From Gemmatimonadales bacterium (GTDB taxonomy: Bacteria > Gemmatimonadota > Gemmatimonadetes > Gemmatimonadales > GWC2-71-9): a stretch of DNA of 50,831 nt. A program made the translations under genes and the position numbers. Below are positions 10,572 to 42,598 of the stretch, piece by piece. The stretch spans positions 1 through 50,831 of the forward strand of contig JBBQQJ010000001.1 of assembly GCA_038216165.1 (NCBI GenBank). The letters run 5' to 3'. Below the pieces are notes generated by a model. It searched no databases. It saw nothing but the letters and a program-made list of their open reading frames with translations, and had not been told where the DNA came from. Each line of letters begins with the position of its first letter. The first letter of the stretch is position 1.

Positions 10572-11828
10572 TCACTCAATCGCCTGATACACCCCGGTCC
10601 GGAACCGATCCTGCAGCACCGACCCGTTGGCCGGCATCAACTGCACCATCAACACCGCCACCAGTTCCTTCGCGGGATCCACCCAGTAGGTCGTGTGGTA
10701 TGCCCCCCCCCAGTCCCACTGCCCCGGTTCGCCGTATCGACCGGCCCGGGCAGGGTGGTGCAATATCTCGAACCCGAGACCGAACCCCGACACGCCATCG
10801 GCGTCATAGACCGGGCCGAGATGGTCACGCGTCATGAGCACCACACTGGCCGGTGACAGGATGCGATGGCCCAGGTGCCGCCCGCCCTGGCGCAACATCT
10901 CGAGAAAGACCGCATAATCGGCTGCCGTGCTCACCAACCCTGCCCCCCCCGCGAATGCGGTGCACGGCCCATCGACATAGTCACCTTGCCCGAGCGGCCC
11001 CGCCGGCGCGCGGGTGAGCACACCATCTCGCAGGGCGTAGACCGCGGCCAACTGCGCGGCATCCGATGCCGGCACGCAGAACGACGTCCCCGTCATGCCC
11101 AGCGGCTCGGTGATCCGCGCCTGCACCACCGCCGCCAGCGATTGTCCCGTCACCTTTTCGACGAGGCAGCCGAGCACGTCGGTCGCGTAGCCGTACACGA
11201 AACGCTCCCCCGGCTGCGCCACCAGCGGCAGCTCCGCGAGGGGAGCCAGCGCCGTGCAGATGTCCGTCGCCTTGTGCGCGAAGTACCACCCCGAACCGGC
11301 CTCGCTCCCCAGCCCGCGCGCCGCGTAGGCCGCCGCGACGAACGCCTCCCGGCCGTAGGACATCCCGGCCGAGTGGGTCAGCAGGTCGCGCACCGTGATT
11401 GCGCGGCAAAGTGGCACCAGCTGCCGCCCGCCGGTGGCACTGTCGGGCACCGACACCTTCGCGTCGGCAAACCCCGGCAACCAGCGCGTGATCCGATCGG
11501 AGAGCGCCATCCTCCCCTCCTCGATCAATGTCATGATGACCACGCTGGTGATCGCCTTCGTCTGCGAGGCGATGCGGAAACGGGTATCCATCGTCATCGC
11601 GCGCCCGGCCTCGCGATCCGCCATCCCGGTGGCATGCTCGTACACTACCCGACCGTGCTGCAGCACCACGGCGACGATCCCTGCCGCGCGCCCCTCGGCC
11701 ACGGTCCCCTCGAGCGTCGCGGTGAGGCGGGCGGCGGCCTCCGCATGCAGGGGAGCGCGGGCAGTGGGGAGCTGCGCAGCGAGTGGGGTGGTCACACACA
11801 GGACAAGACCGAGCAACGGAGGCCGCAT
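10572..11828 (-). CDS. Serine hydrolase, beta-lactamase/transpeptidase-like family
   Basis: Real start is MRPPLLGLVLCVTTPLAAQ at 11828. The rest of the 858-aa track ORF is R/G-rich shadow. SxxK motif in RIASQTKAITSVV. Confidence 0.85.
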   Translation of the reverse strand: MRPPLLGLVLCVTTPLAAQLPTARAPLHAEAAARLTATLEGTVAEGRAAGIVAVVLQHGRVVYEHATGMADREAGRAMTMDTRFRIASQTKAITSVVIMTLIEEGRMALSDRITRWLPGFADAKVSVPDSATGGRQLVPLCRAITVRDLLTHSAGMSYGREAFVAAAYAARGLGSEAGSGWYFAHKATDICTALAPLAELPLVAQPGERFVYGYATDVLGCLVEKVTGQSLAAVVQARITEPLGMTGTSFCVPASDAAQLAAVYALRDGVLTRAPAGPLGQGDYVDGPCTAFAGGAGLVSTAADYAVFLEMLRQGGRHLGHRILSPASVVLMTRDHLGPVYDADGVSGFGLGFEILHHPARAGRYGEPGQWDWGGAYHTTYWVDPAKELVAVLMVQLMPANGSVLQDRFRTGVYQAIE

Positions 11829-11933
11829 GGAGGGATCCTCTGGAATGGGGAGATTCCGTAATCTACGCCTTCGGGCACCAATGGGTGAGAGGCCGCCCTT
11901 TCGGGATCTGCACGCCTCGCCCACGTTTCGGGG

Positions 11934-13085
11934 ATGATCTCTCGCCTGCCGCGATGGATCGGAATCGGAGGCGCCCTCCTCGGCTTCGTTGCCGGGTGGG
12001 TCAATGCTGTGGGCCTCCTCGACTTCCGCCATCAGGCCGTATCCTATGTGACGGGCAGCGTCGCCGAAGTGGGCGTGGCACTTGCCAGTGCCGACATCGG
12101 CATGGCGCTGCACCTTGCGCTGATCGTCCTCGCCTTCATCGTTGGCGCCACCGGCAGCGGTCTCGTGGTGCGCGACGCCTCGATCGGCCGTGGCCGCAAC
12201 TATGCCGCGGCCCTCGGCCTCGAGTCGGTCCTCGTTGTCGCCGCCATTCCGCTCCTCACCCGCGAGATCGCGGCGGGGCAATACCTGCTGAGCGCGGCGT
12301 GCGGCCTGCAGAACGCCCTCGCCTCCACCTTCAGCGGCGCCGTGGTCCGCACCACCCACCTCACCGGCATCGCCACCGATCTCGGGGTTCTCCTGGGCCA
12401 CCGGCTGCGCGGGCTGCGCGTCGATGCCCGCCACGTGCGCCTGTTTGGCGCGATCCTCGCCGGCTTCACCACCGGTGCCGTCGCAGGCGCGCTCGCCTTC
12501 GCCCAGCTCGGCCCGCTGGCCCTCGTGGTCCCCGGGCTGCTCACCGCGGGGGCTGCGGTGGCCTCCACCCGGCTCCGTGCACCCAGCCGCGGTGATGGGC
12601 CGCTCGCGGTCACCCTGCATCACGCCACCAAGGGTGACCTCCCGGCCCTCTCCGACCTCTATGCCCGTGCCGTCGACCAACTTGCGGATGCCCACTACGA
12701 CGCCGCCGCCCGCGAGGCATGGGCCGGCTTTGCCAAACAAGAGGCCTTCGCCGCCTTCGTGCTCGAGGCCGAGACCCTGGTGGCCCGCACCGATGGGCTG
12801 GCCGTCGGCTTCGCGGGCCTGACGCCCCGCGGGCATATCGCCTCGCTCTACGTGGCCCCCGAAGCCGCCGGCCGCGGCGTGGCACGCACCCTCGTGGAGG
12901 CACTCCTCGTGCGCGCACGCGAGCTCGGGCACGCGGTCGTCAGCACCGACGCCAGCGCCGTCTCCCGACCCATCTTCGAGCGCCTCGGCTTCGCCGTGGT
13001 CACCGAGGAGCGCGTACCCCGCCACGGCGCCATCTTTCTCCGGTACCAGATGCAGCGCTCCCTCCCTCCCCAACCGATCGCGTGA
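11934..13085 (+). CDS. YoaK/DUF1275 membrane domain fused to GNAT N-acetyltransferase
   Basis: The N-terminal ~230 aa have DUF1275-type motifs ([33 protein letters not shown]). The C-terminal ~150 aa are GNAT-like ([25 protein letters not shown]). Confidence 0.8.
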
Positions 13086-13089
13086 CGCC

Positions 13090-13509
13090 ATGACGATGCC
13101 ACCGTTCCATCTCGCCTTCCCCGTCGATGACCTCGATGCTGCGCGCAACTTCTACGGCGGGCTCCTCGGCTGCGCCGAGGGACGCAGCAGCGACCAGTGG
13201 ATTGACTTCGACTTCTTCGGCCATCAGGTGGTCGCCCATCTCGCGCCCGATGAGTGCAGCCCCACCAGCACCAGTGCAGTCGATGGCCACGCCGTCCCGG
13301 TGCGGCACTTCGGCGTGGTGCTCGACTGGGACGTCTGGCAGGGGATGGCCGAGCGCCTCGCCGGGGCGGGGATCCACTTCATCATCGAACCCGGCATCCG
13401 CTTTCAGGGCCAGGTGGGTGAACAAGCCACGATGTTCTTCCTCGACCCGGCCGGCAATGCGCTCGAATTCAAGGCGTTCCGGGACAAGACGCAGTTGTTT
13501 GCGAAGTGA
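13090..13509 (+). CDS. VOC (glyoxalase/bleomycin-resistance/dioxygenase) family protein
   Basis: [28 protein letters not shown]... is a typical VOC N-terminus. 139 aa. The start lies 4 nt after the upstream stop. Confidence 0.85.
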
Positions 13510-13540
13510 GGGGTGAGGGGTGGGGGGTTAAAGGTGAAAC
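13506..13540 (+). repeat. Heptanucleotide array GTGAGGG GTGAGGG GTGGGGG GTTAAAG GTGAAAC
   Basis: Five consecutive 7-nt units begin with GT. The first unit contains the VOC stop codon TGA (13507-13509). G-tracts at 13510-13527. Confidence 0.8.
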
Positions 13541-13664
13541 GGGAACAGCCACAGCGCGCGGGGGGACCCTCTCGCAGCGGCCCTTGGCTGGCCACGTGCC
13601 CGGCGCGGGATCACGTCCCCGCACGGCCAGACGGAGGCCGCGGAGCGAGGTGGTCTCCCGGCGG
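13541..13664 (+). repeat. Long-hairpin repeat element, diverged copy (same family as 15149-15425)
   Basis: Shares GGGAAC...GACCCTCTCGCAGCGGCCCTTGGCTGGCCAC (31 nt identical) with the downstream copies. Also shares the right arm GGCCAG.CG.AGGCCGCGGAG.GAG..GGTC..CCGG.GG. The central part differs. Confidence 0.75.
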
Positions 13665-13804
13665 CGGCAGGGATGGGCAACGATCCATCGCCGAGCCGAG
13701 AGATCCAGGGCCATCCTGTGCGAGGAGTCAGCCTCCGTGGCGCCGGACAACCCCAGAGCTCTCGCTGCGCTCGAGATGACTTCCAGCCACACACGAGGCA
13801 CACC

Positions 13805-15094
13805 ATGACCAGCCGACTTGCCGTTGCTGCATTGCTCCCGCTCCTGGCCTGTGCCCCATCGGCACCCCCGGCCACCACCCCGGCCGGCGCCGCGACCCTC
13901 ACCCTCGCCGAGGGACTCCGCATCGCCGATCAGTATCGCGTGGCGGCCATCACCGAACGGCGCACCACGCACGCGGAGTACTGGCAGGCCATCGCCCCCT
14001 CGCTCGCCTCACCGCGGCTCCGGGTCGAGGAGGTCGGTCGGTCGACTCAAGGGCGCGCGCTCCGTAGCATCACCTTCGGGAACGGCCCCATCACCGTCCT
14101 CCTCTGGAGCCAGATGCACGGCGACGAGCCCACCGCCACGATGGCGCTCGCCGACATCTTCGCGTGGATGGCCGCGCCGGGTAGCGACCCGCTTCGCGAT
14201 CGCCTCATGCAGGAACTCACCGTCGTCATCCTCCCGATGCTCAACCCCGACGGGGCACAGCGCTATCAGCGCCAGAACGCTGGTGGTATCGACATCAATC
14301 GCGACGCACGCAACCTCAGCACGCCCGAGGGCCGCACGCTCAAGGCGCTGCGTGATCGGTTGCAGCCGCAGTTCGGGTTCAACCTGCATGACCAGAGCGC
14401 GCGCACGCGCGTCGGCCGCAACGGCCCGCAGGCCGCCATCGCCCTCCTGGCACCTGCGGCCGATGCCGAGCGCAGCTGGGGCCCGGTGCGGAGCAGGGCG
14501 CGCCAGGTCGCGGCGGGTATCGCCCGCACCCTCGCGCCGGAACTCCCTGGGCGCATTGCCCAGTATGACGACGGCTTCAACCCACGCGCCTTCGGCGACC
14601 TCATGCAGACCTGGGGCACCAGCACCGTCCTCATCGAAAGCGGTGCGCTCCCGAACGACCCCGAGAAGCAGCAGCTTCGCCGCCTCCACGTTCCCGCCAT
14701 CCTGGGTGCGCTCGACGCCATCGCCAGCGGCGCCTATGCCGCGGCCAATATCACGGATTACGATCGCCTCCCCTTCAACACCGGCGGCGCCGTGGACCTC
14801 CTCGTTCGAGGTGGTCAGATTGTCCTCCCCGGTTCGCCGCCGTATCGCGCCGACGTCGCCATCAACTTCGACGACGCCGTCGCCCGCACCGGCGGACGCA
14901 TTGAAGAGATCGGCGACCTCAGCGCGGTCGTCGCGATTGATACACTCGATGCCACCGGCCGCTACCTGCACCCGGGCACCGAAGCACTGGCCCGCGACGG
15001 CGTGCGACTCTGGCTCCCGATCGACAACCCGGCGGTGTTCGACCTGCGGGAGACCGCGGCCGCAAGTGGACCAGTGGTCCGCAGGATTCGGTGA
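13805..15094 (+). CDS. M14 family zinc carboxypeptidase (secreted)
   Basis: Preferred start is MTSRLAVAALLPLLACAP (signal/lipobox) at 13805. LWSQMHGDEPTAT is the HxxE zinc motif. Overall M14-like. Confidence 0.85.
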   Translation: MTSRLAVAALLPLLACAPSAPPATTPAGAATLTLAEGLRIADQYRVAAITERRTTHAEYWQAIAPSLASPRLRVEEVGRSTQGRALRSITFGNGPITVLLWSQMHGDEPTATMALADIFAWMAAPGSDPLRDRLMQELTVVILPMLNPDGAQRYQRQNAGGIDINRDARNLSTPEGRTLKALRDRLQPQFGFNLHDQSARTRVGRNGPQAAIALLAPAADAERSWGPVRSRARQVAAGIARTLAPELPGRIAQYDDGFNPRAFGDLMQTWGTSTVLIESGALPNDPEKQQLRRLHVPAILGALDAIASGAYAAANITDYDRLPFNTGGAVDLLVRGGQIVLPGSPPYRADVAINFDDAVARTGGRIEEIGDLSAVVAIDTLDATGRYLHPGTEALARDGVRLWLPIDNPAVFDLRETAAASGPVVRRIR

Positions 15095-15148
15095 TGGACG
15101 GGTGAGGGGTGACGGGGTGAGGGTGAGGGGTTGAGGCGTGGGTGGAGA
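15095..15148 (+). repeat. G-rich approximately 7-nt periodic array (GGTGAGG/GGTGACG type), G-quadruplex-capable
   Basis: It starts immediately after the M14 stop (TGA 15092-94). Sequence: GGGTGAGGGGTGACGGGGTGAGGGTGAGGGGTTGAGG. Five G3-4 tracts separated by 3-4 nt lie at 15100-15130. Confidence 0.8.
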
Positions 15149-15425
15149 AAGGGGAACCACCGCACCCGCCGGGTGACCCTCTCGCAGCGGCCCTTGGCTG
15201 GCCACTGGCCCGTCTTGCGATCGCTCCCTCGCGCGGCCAGGCGCAGGCCGCGGAGAGAGTCGGTCAGCCGGTGGGGGGGGAGCGAGACGTGAGACGTGGT
15301 AGGGGAACCAGCGCACCCGCCGGGTGACCCGCTCGCAGCGGCCCTTGGCTGGCCACTGGCCCGTCTTGCGATCGCTCCCTCGCGCGGCCAGGCGCAGGCC
15401 GCGGAGAGAGTCGGTCAGCCGGTGG
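15149..15425 (+). repeat. Tandem pair of ~125-nt long-hairpin repeat elements (period 152 bp)
   Basis: Copy 1 (15149-15274) and copy 2 (15301-15425) differ at 2 positions by eye. The 26-nt spacer includes G8 and the heptads GCGAGAC GTGAGAC GTGGTAG. Each copy is an imperfect palindrome centred on GCGATCGC, with pairing blocks CCGG.TGACC, CTCTC, GCGGCC and CTGGCC. Confidence 0.85.
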
Positions 15426-15434
15426 ACATCCCGC

Positions 15435-16091
15435 TCACACCCCGGGCATGAACCGACACCCCGCATCCTGCGCCCGGATCGCCGCGAAGAACCCCGACGG
15501 CTGCAGAATCACCCCCGGGATCAGGTTCGCCATCGCCGCCGCACGCGCATCGGCCGCCGGCACCTTCCCGCCATCGCGATAGCGAGCCACCGCGAAACGG
15601 AACGCCAGGTCACACGCCAGCACGATCCCCCCCCCGGCAATGAACCCCTCCATCGTCATCATCGCACGCGCCGGTGATGTCCCCTCGGGGACCGCACGCA
15701 TCGGATTCACCACAAACCACTTCTTCGTCCGGGGATTCTTCCACTTGGCCTCCTTGGCCACCGGAAAGCGCGCCCAGTGCGCATCGTGCATTGCCAGATC
15801 GATCGCGTTGTGGCGGATCACCAGCACCGTCGAACAGGTCGTCGCCTCGCCGTAGACACTCCGCACCTGCCCCGACCACATCCCGGCACGGAAGATCCCG
15901 ACACCCTCCTCCACCTCGGGCACGTCGAACACCGCGCGGAACTGCCCCGTCACCCGGTCCACCCAGGACATGTCCACGTCAGCCGCAACCGGCGACGGCA
16001 GCGGCGTGGCGGCGTGGGCATTGCCGGGCAGCGCCGGCAGCAGGGCACCGGCGCCGAGGGCGCCAACAAAATGACGACGAGAGGAAATCAT
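15435..16091 (-). CDS. Tat-signal exported protein of unknown function
   Basis: Preferred start is MISSRRHFVGALGAGALLPALPGNAHA, a twin-arginine signal at 16091. Last gene of the amidohydrolase string. Confidence 0.65.
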   Translation of the reverse strand: MISSRRHFVGALGAGALLPALPGNAHAATPLPSPVAADVDMSWVDRVTGQFRAVFDVPEVEEGVGIFRAGMWSGQVRSVYGEATTCSTVLVIRHNAIDLAMHDAHWARFPVAKEAKWKNPRTKKWFVVNPMRAVPEGTSPARAMMTMEGFIAGGGIVLACDLAFRFAVARYRDGGKVPAADARAAAMANLIPGVILQPSGFFAAIRAQDAGCRFMPGV

Positions 16092-16127
16092 GCGCGGCGC
16101 TCCAAGAAAGGACGGTGATCCCAATAG

Positions 16128-37865: not shown

Positions 37866-37984
37866 GATGTTGGATGTTGGATGTTGGACACTCGACATCG
37901 GCAACTCGATCCTGGTGAGCGACAGCGATGGTCGACTCCAATATCCACCATCCCATTACCGACATCCACACCAAGGACCCCTAC
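37866..37984 (+). repeat. Heptanucleotide-periodic intergenic spacer, starting with (GATGTTG)3
   Basis: The 119 nt (17 x 7) run from 6 nt after the esterase stop up to the ATP-grasp ATG. Units in register: GATGTTG x3, GACACTC, GACATCG, GCAACTC, GATCCTG, GTGAGCG ... ATCCACC, ATCCCAT, TACCGAC, ATCCACA, CCAAGGA, CCCCTAC. Confidence 0.75.
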
Positions 37985-42549: not shown

Positions 42550-42598
42550 GGTGAACGGTGAACCGGGGCCGCGCGTCAGTCTGGTTCACCGCGTCACC
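42550..42598. terminator. Hairpin between convergent crcB and the DUF5916 gene (possible bidirectional terminator)
   Basis: GGTGAACGGTGAACC (42550-64) pairs with GGTTCACCGCGTCACC (42583-98). That gives 9 bp plus 5 bp with a small internal loop and an 18-nt apical loop. No U-tract. The arms are themselves heptad repeats. Confidence 0.4.

Follow-up and report, generated by a model that had tools for sequence, protein, structure and literature searches.

The window analyzed here, a 50,831-nucleotide stretch of DNA, is contig C1 of a metagenome-assembled genome (MAG) from a Gemmatimonadales bacterium (2.8 Mb in 343 contigs, 90% complete, 69% GC). At positions 15149 to 15425 it carries two nearly identical long-hairpin elements in tandem, each of which we refer to as a module. 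We found that the pair arose by local duplication of a single member of a dispersed repeat family, and that the members of this family are previously undescribed, lineage-specific, non-coding palindromic intergenic repeats of ∼118 to 125 nt. The family is multicopy, patchy in its distribution, and specific to one family of the Gemmatimonadales.

A dispersed repeat family specific to one bacterial lineage

The genome to which the window belongs contains six copies of the module. Five of these were found by BLAST, namely, the tandem pair, a copy at 13538-13664 of the window (79% identity), and two minus-strand copies on other contigs (C71:1257-1383 and C15:18517-18640), while the sixth, a diverged copy at C14:10509-10627, was found by nhmmer. 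BLAST searches in 40 relatives and congeners returned chance partial matches in GC-rich DNA only and no true copy, so that true relatives came to light only with covariance models (CMs). A first CM, built from the six own copies, retrieved full-length diverged copies from four congeners; a fifth match, in G045, lies inside a coding region and was rejected as a false positive. A second CM extended the family to two other genera. A third CM, built from 22 copies and applied with strict filters, was run on 151 genomes sampled from the same bacterial family. Of these, 45 proved to be carriers, representing 33 of 78 genera, and the copy number per genome ranged from 1 to at least 19. The element is therefore not confined to the locus at which a sequence-only reading of the window had noticed it.

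The restriction to one lineage is apparent from two broader searches. In a phylum-level scan, 17 of 71 genomes of the module's own bacterial family were positive, versus 0 of 79 genomes from eleven other families. A search of 185,579 species genomes for an exact core pattern of two blocks, CGTCAGTGAGCGG-N25-50-GCGAACTGCAG, returned 116 stretches; the records listed are without exception MAGs, and each title names Gemmatimonadota, Gemmatimonadales, or Gemmatimonadaceae. When metagenomes were scanned for the subfamily to which the modules of the window belong, a first pattern yielded 0 stretches and a relaxed one 5, with no module among them. The copies have a GC content of 66 to 80% and are 80 to 85% identical between genera, within spacers that are otherwise unalignable. 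A full-text literature search returned no description of palindromic repeats in Gemmatimonadetes.

Anatomy of the tandem pair

Tandem Repeats Finder (TRF) places the repeat at 15150-15425 with a period of 151, 1.8 copies, 98% matches, and a score of 538, and a second repeat search of the window resolved two 151-nt units at 15122-15272 and 15273-15423; the period of 152 given by the sequence-only reading is thus revised to 151. The same reading had counted two mismatches by eye, and copies A and B indeed share 98% identity with two internal differences (CCACCGCA versus CCAGCGCA and CCCTCTCGC versus CCCGCTCGC). Each unit spans ∼125 nt and comprises a 17-nt 5′ tail starting (A/T)AGGGGAACC, followed by an imperfect hairpin of ∼109 nt (∼15166-15274 and ∼15317-15425), which agrees with the palindrome of ∼110 nt described earlier. 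The motif GGGGAACC, also described as opening each copy, is found at the beginning of both units (15151-15158 and 15302-15309). The duplicated block consists of the module plus a 25-nt spacer, and the end of the duplication coincides exactly with the end of the second hairpin. Tandems of a module plus its flank also occur in four other genomes (G042, G257, G228, and G278). As the simplest origin, the pair in the window would be the product of slippage or unequal exchange.

Covariation establishes the hairpin structure

The folding energy of a single copy is unremarkable (z = −1.9 for the sense and −1.3 for the antisense strand), and in a genome of 69% GC energy alone is weak evidence. The hairpin is instead established by covariation. 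When 10 genus-level copies were aligned by fitting them to the model, standard pairs made up 91.6% of the pair cells, versus 35 to 47% when the 3′ partners are slid by 1 to 3 columns; double-sided changes are present in 17 of 37 pairs, and 0 of 500 shuffles match any of five measures. For 22 copies from three genera, aligned with MAFFT independently of any structure, RNAalifold predicted 27 pairs, 21 of them with double compensatory changes. The search for covariation suggested in the sequence-only reading has thus given strong support for the fold. The arm blocks that this reading had paired by eye (CCGG.TGACC/GGTCAGCCGG, CTCTC/GAGAG, GCGGCC/GGCCGC, and CTGGCC/GGCCAG) are likewise all paired in the minimum free energy (MFE) and consensus structures.

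We drew a consensus from 60 nonredundant copies of ∼35 genomes. The outer stem, P1, has ∼17 to 25 bp that vary in sequence and stay paired, with subfamilies such as GCGCAGCATGCCGGTGCGTCCC common to several genera. At the junction with the next stem, P2, the 5′ strand reads CG-nAG and the 3′ strand GGAG or GAAG. P2 itself has 6 bp and covaries (GCGGGC, CGCGCG, GGACGC, GCAGGC, and others). Above it, CGT-CAGT-GA-GCGG on the 5′ side pairs with (C)CGC-GA-ACTG-CAG on the 3′ side, forming a 2×2 loop, a 4-bp helix, a tandem G·A loop, and a further helix, and the apex holds a small GCCC...GGG hairpin together with the motif TTGGGATC. The window's own subfamily departs from this consensus in that CTTGG-CTGGCC/GGCCAG-GCGGA replaces the CAGT-GA-GCGG block and the tandem GA is absent. 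Its central GCGATCGC, previously taken as the defining center of symmetry, is a local, copy-specific variant of the family-wide TTGGGATC loop motif. Across the 60-copy alignment, the center of the module and several unpaired purines are conserved and the ends are the most variable part, which is the reverse of miniature inverted-repeat transposable elements (MITEs) defined by terminal inverted repeats (TIRs), of REPINs, and of attC sites. A likeness of the CAGUGAG...CGAAC core to the hammerhead, the hairpin ribozyme, or the K-turn was considered by eye and dropped, since the consensus positions misfit.

The two strands do not fold equally well. The sense strand is more stable than its complement in 52 of the 60 copies (means of −71.4 versus −65.1 kcal/mol; Wilcoxon p = 2.7e-9), and G·U cells outnumber A·C cells both in this set (86 versus 23) and in the genus-level set (31 versus 6). 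This asymmetry indicates that the structure is that of one particular single strand, either RNA or single-stranded DNA, rather than of a symmetric duplex site, and it disfavors a symmetric double-stranded recombination or anchoring site, one of three candidate identities that had been proposed from the sequence.

Modules lie behind the stop codons of unrelated genes

At all five loci in the own genome, the module lies 8 to 55 nt past the stop of a same-strand gene. The genes upstream are functionally unrelated (glyoxalase/VOC, M14 carboxypeptidase, rhodanese, a WYL/PafC-type regulator, and DUF547). The same placement behind a stop recurs in G006 (after a cutC-like gene, as judged from its translation) and in G042, and further neighbors in relatives include Uma2-like genes and BNR/sortilin proteins. 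In a pattern scan with crude gene calls, 58 of 96 classifiable copies were located in co-directional spacers (40 sense and 18 antisense), 22 in convergent spacers, and 16 in divergent ones. For both orientations, the distance to the stop before the module is shorter than that to the start after it (medians of ∼66 and 154 nt, respectively, for one orientation and of 29 and 82 nt for the other).

The module is non-coding and longer than a simple REP, as had been read from the sequence. A riboswitch or leader of one pathway was rejected because the neighboring genes are unrelated, and the earlier statement that no known riboswitch is present holds as well: Rfam 15 (4,227 families, known ribozymes included) gave no match at an E value of ≤1 on the window region, and on 12 loci from relatives only spurious microRNA-precursor matches to other hairpins were obtained. 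Independent small RNA genes, another of the proposed identities, are unlikely, as no conserved promoter or terminator flanks were seen; within 13300-15700 of the window we found no σ70-like promoter and no intrinsic-terminator consensus.

Two other short repeats were observed next to modules. Directly downstream of the C14 copy, at C14:10640-10700 (L036 ∼1040-1100), there is a C-rich 15-nt tandem repeat of three units, CCGTGCCCTCTGCCT. A second short repeat family, TCGACTTCGGCGCTGCGCGCCTTCGCTCGGGATGACA, with a length of ∼37 nt, is represented at least 8 times in the own genome (C71:1190-1226 [L003] and at least seven other contigs, C8, C62, C74, C18, C226, C119, and C32); it directly adjoins the C71 module and follows each G042 module (L040 ∼1260-1300 and ∼1530-1570).

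Heptad arrays are a separate feature of gene ends

The sequence-only reading had treated short arrays of GTGAnnn heptads as part of the element and had placed one before each copy. Copy A is indeed preceded by a G-rich array (15097-15140), whereas copy B has only a 2-unit GAGACGT repeat (15284-15298). More generally, heptad arrays are distinct from the element: they occur at gene ends throughout the genome, also where there is no module. The own genome contains 259 period-7 tandem arrays of at least 2.8 units, of which 58 begin between −12 and +40 nt from crude gene stops (∼2,000) on the sense strand, versus 7 of 173 arrays in a period-5 control. Their units include GGTGAAC, GGCGAAC, GGTGAGG, GGTCGTA, and GGATGTT, often with the stop codon itself inside a unit; examples are found at 13506-13528, 15097-15140, 37866-37888, and 42550-42563 of the window and, in congeners, at L063:158-330 and L064:340-490. 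Many arrays are followed by a complementary array, so that long hairpins with heptad-repeat arms are formed. One such hairpin, (GGTGAAA)n...(TTTCACC)n with an MFE of −83 kcal/mol, occupies the G013 spacer behind the orthologous M14 gene in the absence of any module, and another heptad-array hairpin was found in G006. Heptad arrays look like the usual gene-end structure of this lineage.

Modules and heptads nevertheless meet at many sites. Heptads lie on the 5′ side at 4 of the 5 own module loci. On C71, the module sits between GTGATTG GTGAGGG GTGAATC and the complementary TCACCCC TCATCCC TCACCCC at the end of the convergent gene, and all five modules of G278 are flanked by GTGAAAN arrays and their complements. 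Family-wide, at least 3 heptads were counted on the 5′ side of 17 of 109 modules and on the 3′ side of 4 of 109; a period-8 control was also frequent (26), which makes it probable that some arrays mix 7- and 8-nt units. At the tandem pair, a predicted 361-nt fold encloses both modules by pairing CCCGCTCACACCCC (15430-15443) with the heptads at 15092-15148.

Intergenic heptanucleotide arrays have precedents in two reports (PMC4679880, PMC4692102), which describe the TAACTGA repeats of Beggiatoaceae and the G-rich heptamers of Xanthomonas and Nostoc. Like those arrays, the Gemmatimonadales heptads are 7-nt tandem arrays, mostly intergenic and in some cases G rich and prone to form G-quadruplexes. 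In contrast to them, the arrays found here start at or overlap the stop codon, lie on the sense strand, contain TGA or TAG in the unit, and are often joined by a complementary array to form long hairpins. A literature search returned no account of stop-codon-anchored heptad arrays for Gemmatimonadota.

Polymorphism, paired copies, and composite elements

The distribution of modules among close relatives is polymorphic. Among 25 M14 loci (own genome and 24 congeners), only those of the own genome and of its closest relative, G013, carry a module. The M14 orthologue of G013 has 76% amino acid identity, and the G013 module lies in the orthologous glyoxalase/M14 spacer, with its asymmetric apical segment on the opposite strand (L039:1500-1617 versus 13549-13668 of the window). 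This inverted apex could stem from a flip/flop of the palindrome or from an independent insertion into the same spacer. Behind the M14 stop, the own genome has modules where G013 has the plain heptad hairpin; the downstream synteny differs, so that this is not a strict empty site.

Close module pairs are common, both as head-to-head inverted pairs 40 to 190 nt apart (G139, G232, G073, and G126) and as direct tandem pairs (the window, G042, G257, and G228), and nested palindromes are also frequent. G278 has a five-copy cluster (L095:2268-5559, contig G278:C319) in which paralogous Uma2/DUF820-like genes, together with their heptad-module-heptad tails, were duplicated segmentally in tandem; at first sight this cluster resembles an array of integron cassettes. 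A composite of ∼340 bp was found in G139, where a palindromic spacer lies between two inverted modules and the whole is bounded by a 9-bp TIR, GCTCCGTGT...ACACGGAGC. Three contigs whose flanks are unrelated carry this composite at 77 to 87% identity (L054:1275-1617, L060:1298-1632, and L065:1484-1825). It has no target-site duplication, and it behaves as mobile DNA.

Target-site duplications, which the sequence-only reading had proposed to look for, were not consistently present in 107 copies; an excess of 2- to 3-nt end matches is explained by the fixed GAGCGA flank of one subfamily. Between the 3-kb inverted pair of G073 there is no autonomous parent element, only BNR/sortilin-type genes. 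The own genome (90% complete) has 0 matches to the Y1 transposase (PF01797) and no match to TnpB. We also considered that modules insert into the loops of existing terminator hairpins, which would explain unique outer stems; this idea was weakened by the finding that outer-stem subfamilies are common to several genera. The nesting of modules inside heptad hairpins is nonetheless real.

Features surrounding the tandem pair

The features between the glyoxalase gene and the convergent gene downstream of copy B are collected in Table 1. Upstream of them, two long open reading frames (ORFs) on opposite strands overlap at 10572-13148 (minus) and 11934-13085 (plus) of the window; both have a coding-like GC content at third codon positions (GC3) and at most one of them is real, making gene calling ambiguous there.

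Table 1 Features of the window from the glyoxalase gene to the convergent gene behind copy B
Feature	Position	Strand	Evidence
Glyoxalase/VOC-family gene; TGA stop within first heptad unit	13090..13509	+	Pfam PF00903, E = 1.5e-10; codon-position GC pattern
Sense-strand heptad array (GTGAGGG GTGAGGG GTGGGGG GTTAAAG GTGAAAC) from stop codon to upstream module copy	13506..13548	+	TRF period 7, 3.3 copies; sequence
Diverged third window copy of the long-hairpin module, in the glyoxalase/M14 spacer	13549..13668	+	79% identical to copy A (BLAST, 13538-13664); CM 99.9 bits
M14 zinc-carboxypeptidase gene, module copies on both sides	13673..15094	+	Pfam PF00246
G-rich heptad array from M14 stop (GGGTGAG GGGTGAC GGGGTGAG GGTGAG GGGTTGAG ...), TGA in several frames	15092..15148	+	TRF 15097-15140, periods 7/8/14
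Module copy A: 5′ tail AAGGGGAACCACCGCA, hairpin 15166-15274	15149..15274	+	CM 116.5 bits; fold; BLAST
Spacer within duplicated 151-nt unit (GGGGGGAGCGAGAC GTGAGAC GTGGT), with 2-unit GAGACGT repeat	15275..15299	+	Sequence; TRF
Module copy B, 98% identical to copy A, hairpin 15317-15425	15300..15425	+	CM 114.6 bits; BLAST
CCCGCTCACACCCC, complementary to upstream GGGGTGAG heptads; holds TGA stop of convergent gene (15435-15437, minus)	15430..15443	.	Sequence; heptad pairing in 361-nt fold
Convergent 229-aa gene, twin-arginine-like N terminus, no Pfam match; stop 10 nt from copy B	15435..16124	-	ORF; codon pattern; Pfam search

Comparison with known bacterial repeats

Among known repeats, ERIC (IRU), the 127-bp element of enterobacteria, is by comparison of features the nearest functional analogue of the module. 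Both have ∼120 to 127 nt, form one long imperfect hairpin, and are non-coding and intergenic, near gene ends and in either orientation; both are conserved across genera, vary widely in copy number among related species, and have no known transposase. ERIC lies in transcribed spacers and has orientation-dependent effects on the stability of flanking mRNA (PMC2229807). The module differs in having no sequence relation to ERIC, in its occurrence in the phylum Gemmatimonadota, in its high GC content, and in its nesting within heptads. Furthermore, it has neither the TA ends nor the target-site duplications of ERIC and appears to lack conserved short TIRs, and its center is conserved while its outer stem varies. 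Correia/NEMIS, RUP, RPE, and YPAL are comparable in being short, intergenic, and non-autonomous and in the long stem-loops that their transcripts form, and the Correia RNA hairpins have been proposed as RNase III substrates (PMC2229807).

The module resembles REPINs in being an extragenic hairpin repeat of ∼100 nt with compensatory changes, tandem clusters that include flanks, inverted doublets, and persistence within a lineage (PMC3116915); in REPINs, too, tandem clusters of near-identical units include the flanks, and the hairpins show compensatory changes (PMC3116915). In contrast to REPINs, it conserves the center of one hairpin and not two terminal REPs, its copy number is low (1 to 19), and it has no link to RAYT. 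Membership in a REPIN/RAYT system was therefore rejected: RAYT is absent from 16 of 45 carriers, and Y1 is found in 29 of 45 module-positive versus 63 of 106 module-negative genomes, i.e., without association. Around six Y1 loci (±1.5 kb; G139, G171, G273, and G278), there is no flanking module at an E value of <0.05 with filters off, and no core motifs are arranged in the right way.

Of the three identities proposed from the sequence, a MITE-like mobile element comes closest, given the presence and absence of modules between species, their patchy multicopy distribution, and the G139 composite, which with its 9-bp TIR is MITE-like. The module is also <200 bp long, non-coding, intergenic, multicopy, and polymorphic for presence. 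However, a single module has no TA ends and no target-site duplication, and it appears to lack a conserved TIR, its ends being its most variable part; the G139 composite does end in an inverted repeat (GCTCCGTGT/ACACGGAGC). The module is also not A+T rich, and no related insertion sequence element was identified. The likeness to attC sites consists in the imperfect palindrome (57 to 141 nt in attC), the folding of one strand, and the position just downstream of co-oriented ORFs. Unlike attC, the module has no R″/R′ core motifs (in the copies inspected, no RYYYAAC or GTTRRRY core sites are visible at module ends), its conservation is reversed, and its copies are mostly solitary and follow no cassette logic.

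Possible roles of the module

We favor, with modest confidence, a reading in which the module belongs with the non-autonomous ERIC/REP-like elements and exerts its main effect as an RNA hairpin, located in 3′ untranslated regions (UTRs) and intercistronic spacers, where it would serve as an exonuclease barrier and/or as a processing or binding site. The element would spread and be lost as non-autonomous mobile or duplicative DNA, mobilized by an enzyme other than Y1/RAYT. Because the module usually sits, in sense orientation, in what would be the transcribed tail of the upstream gene, action at the RNA level appears most likely. As a long hairpin in a 3′ UTR or intercistronic spacer, it may stop 3′ exonucleases and/or be the site at which some conserved binding protein acts, such as an RNase that recognizes double strands or a particular structure, in the manner of ERIC and Correia elements (PMC2229807).

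Several points weigh against this reading. The context statistics for the 96 copies rest on crude GC3-based gene calls, ∼30% of the copies in co-directional spacers are antisense, and 16 of 96 lie between divergent genes; given these antisense and divergent copies, a role as sense RNA at 3′ ends cannot hold for every copy. In none of 107 copies is the hairpin followed by TTTT within 15 nt (on average, there is 1 T per 12 nt), and without a U-tract behind the hairpin simple intrinsic termination is unlikely. No mobilizing enzyme was identified, with Y1/RAYT excluded. Finally, covariation in a palindrome can arise from arm-to-arm conversion at the DNA level without selection on RNA, and G·T wobble would equally favor one strand of single-stranded DNA.

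An alternative is a purely selfish DNA-level element, in which a hairpin of single-stranded DNA or a cruciform would serve a transposase, a recombinase, or a host DNA-binding protein (similar to BIME/REP) without any RNA function, its pairing being maintained through the transposition mechanism or arm-to-arm conversion. We regard this as a possible but rather unlikely explanation. It would fit the patchy multicopy distribution, the TIR-bounded composite on three contigs, the frequent head-to-head inverted pairs and nested palindromes, the occupation of both orientations and of divergent spacers, and the inverted apex at the orthologous G013 site, which resembles the flip/flop of a DNA palindrome; the strand asymmetry, too, fits one extruded DNA strand. 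However, no transposase is linked to the module (Y1/RAYT is neither adjacent nor correlated, and TnpB is absent from the own genome), and ordinary genes lie between distant module pairs. The ends, the expected target of a transposase, are the most variable part, with the center and the unpaired bases conserved, and selfish DNA is further at odds with the 2.2:1 sense bias relative to transcription and with the proximity to stop codons. A new functional structured RNA specific to the Gemmatimonadales (either a small ribozyme or a cis-acting element for regulation or processing that has its own protein partner), for which spread is secondary, seems to us decidedly unlikely. In its favor, functional RNAs typically combine a conserved center with a variable closing stem, the reverse of mobile DNA defined by TIRs. 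The conserved unpaired purines (nAG/GGAG at the P1-P2 junction, the tandem GA/GA internal loop, and the TTGGGATC apical motif), the 80 to 85% identity between genera in unalignable spacers, the better folding of the sense strand, and the strong covariation point in the same direction. On the other hand, such an RNA would have no conserved gene association and no similarity to the 4,227 Rfam families, known ribozymes among them; it would be dispensable (0 to at least 19 copies, and missing from most congeners), ∼30% of its copies in co-directional spacers would be antisense, and its inverted doublets and TIR composites resemble DNA behavior. Equally doubtful is the proposal that the module is more than selfish DNA and represents a new RNA class limited to one Gemmatimonadales family, in which a ∼118-nt hairpin with a conserved catalytic or protein-binding core (the P1-P2 purine junction, the tandem G·A loop, and the TTGGGAUC apex) would, together with the stop-codon-anchored heptad hairpins, provide for an unconventional, U-tract-free mode of 3′-end formation or processing.

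Two further explanations fare much worse. That the modules are attC-like recombination sites of integron-type cassettes is highly improbable. Their length range, imperfect palindrome, strand-specific folding, and place behind co-oriented ORFs would suit such sites, as would the order glyoxalase-site-M14-site-site in the window and the fourfold ORF-site series in G278, but no RYYYAAC/GTTRRRY core sites are visible at the ends of the copies inspected and the conservation pattern is reversed. Moreover, the G278 array stems from segmental duplication, its Uma2-like genes being paralogues with common flanks and not distinct cassettes, and the copies are mostly solitary, next to housekeeping-type genes, in both orientations and also in divergent spacers. 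A fortuitous GC-rich palindrome that was duplicated once at this locus, with no wider meaning, is practically negligible as an explanation, for the unimpressive z-scores of single copies stand against six own copies, hundreds in related genomes, and covariation.

Significance for the biology of Gemmatimonadota

Gemmatimonadota are abundant soil bacteria, almost entirely uncultured, and a literature search revealed no publication that describes the non-coding features of their genomes. Our analysis defines for them a lineage-restricted structured repeat with a usable CM. On the practical side, the element breaks assemblies and yields shadow ORFs, and it can serve as a lineage marker. The known small repeats of bacteria follow a logic defined by TIRs or REPs, from which this element deviates by its conserved center, by the covariation in its closing stem, and by its folding on one strand. 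The lack of a RAYT partner implies either an unknown mobilization route or a function at the RNA level. Together with the heptad hairpins, and with no U-tract terminators in 13300-15700 of the window or behind the 107 copies, the module offers an entry to the ending and processing of transcripts in high-GC bacteria.

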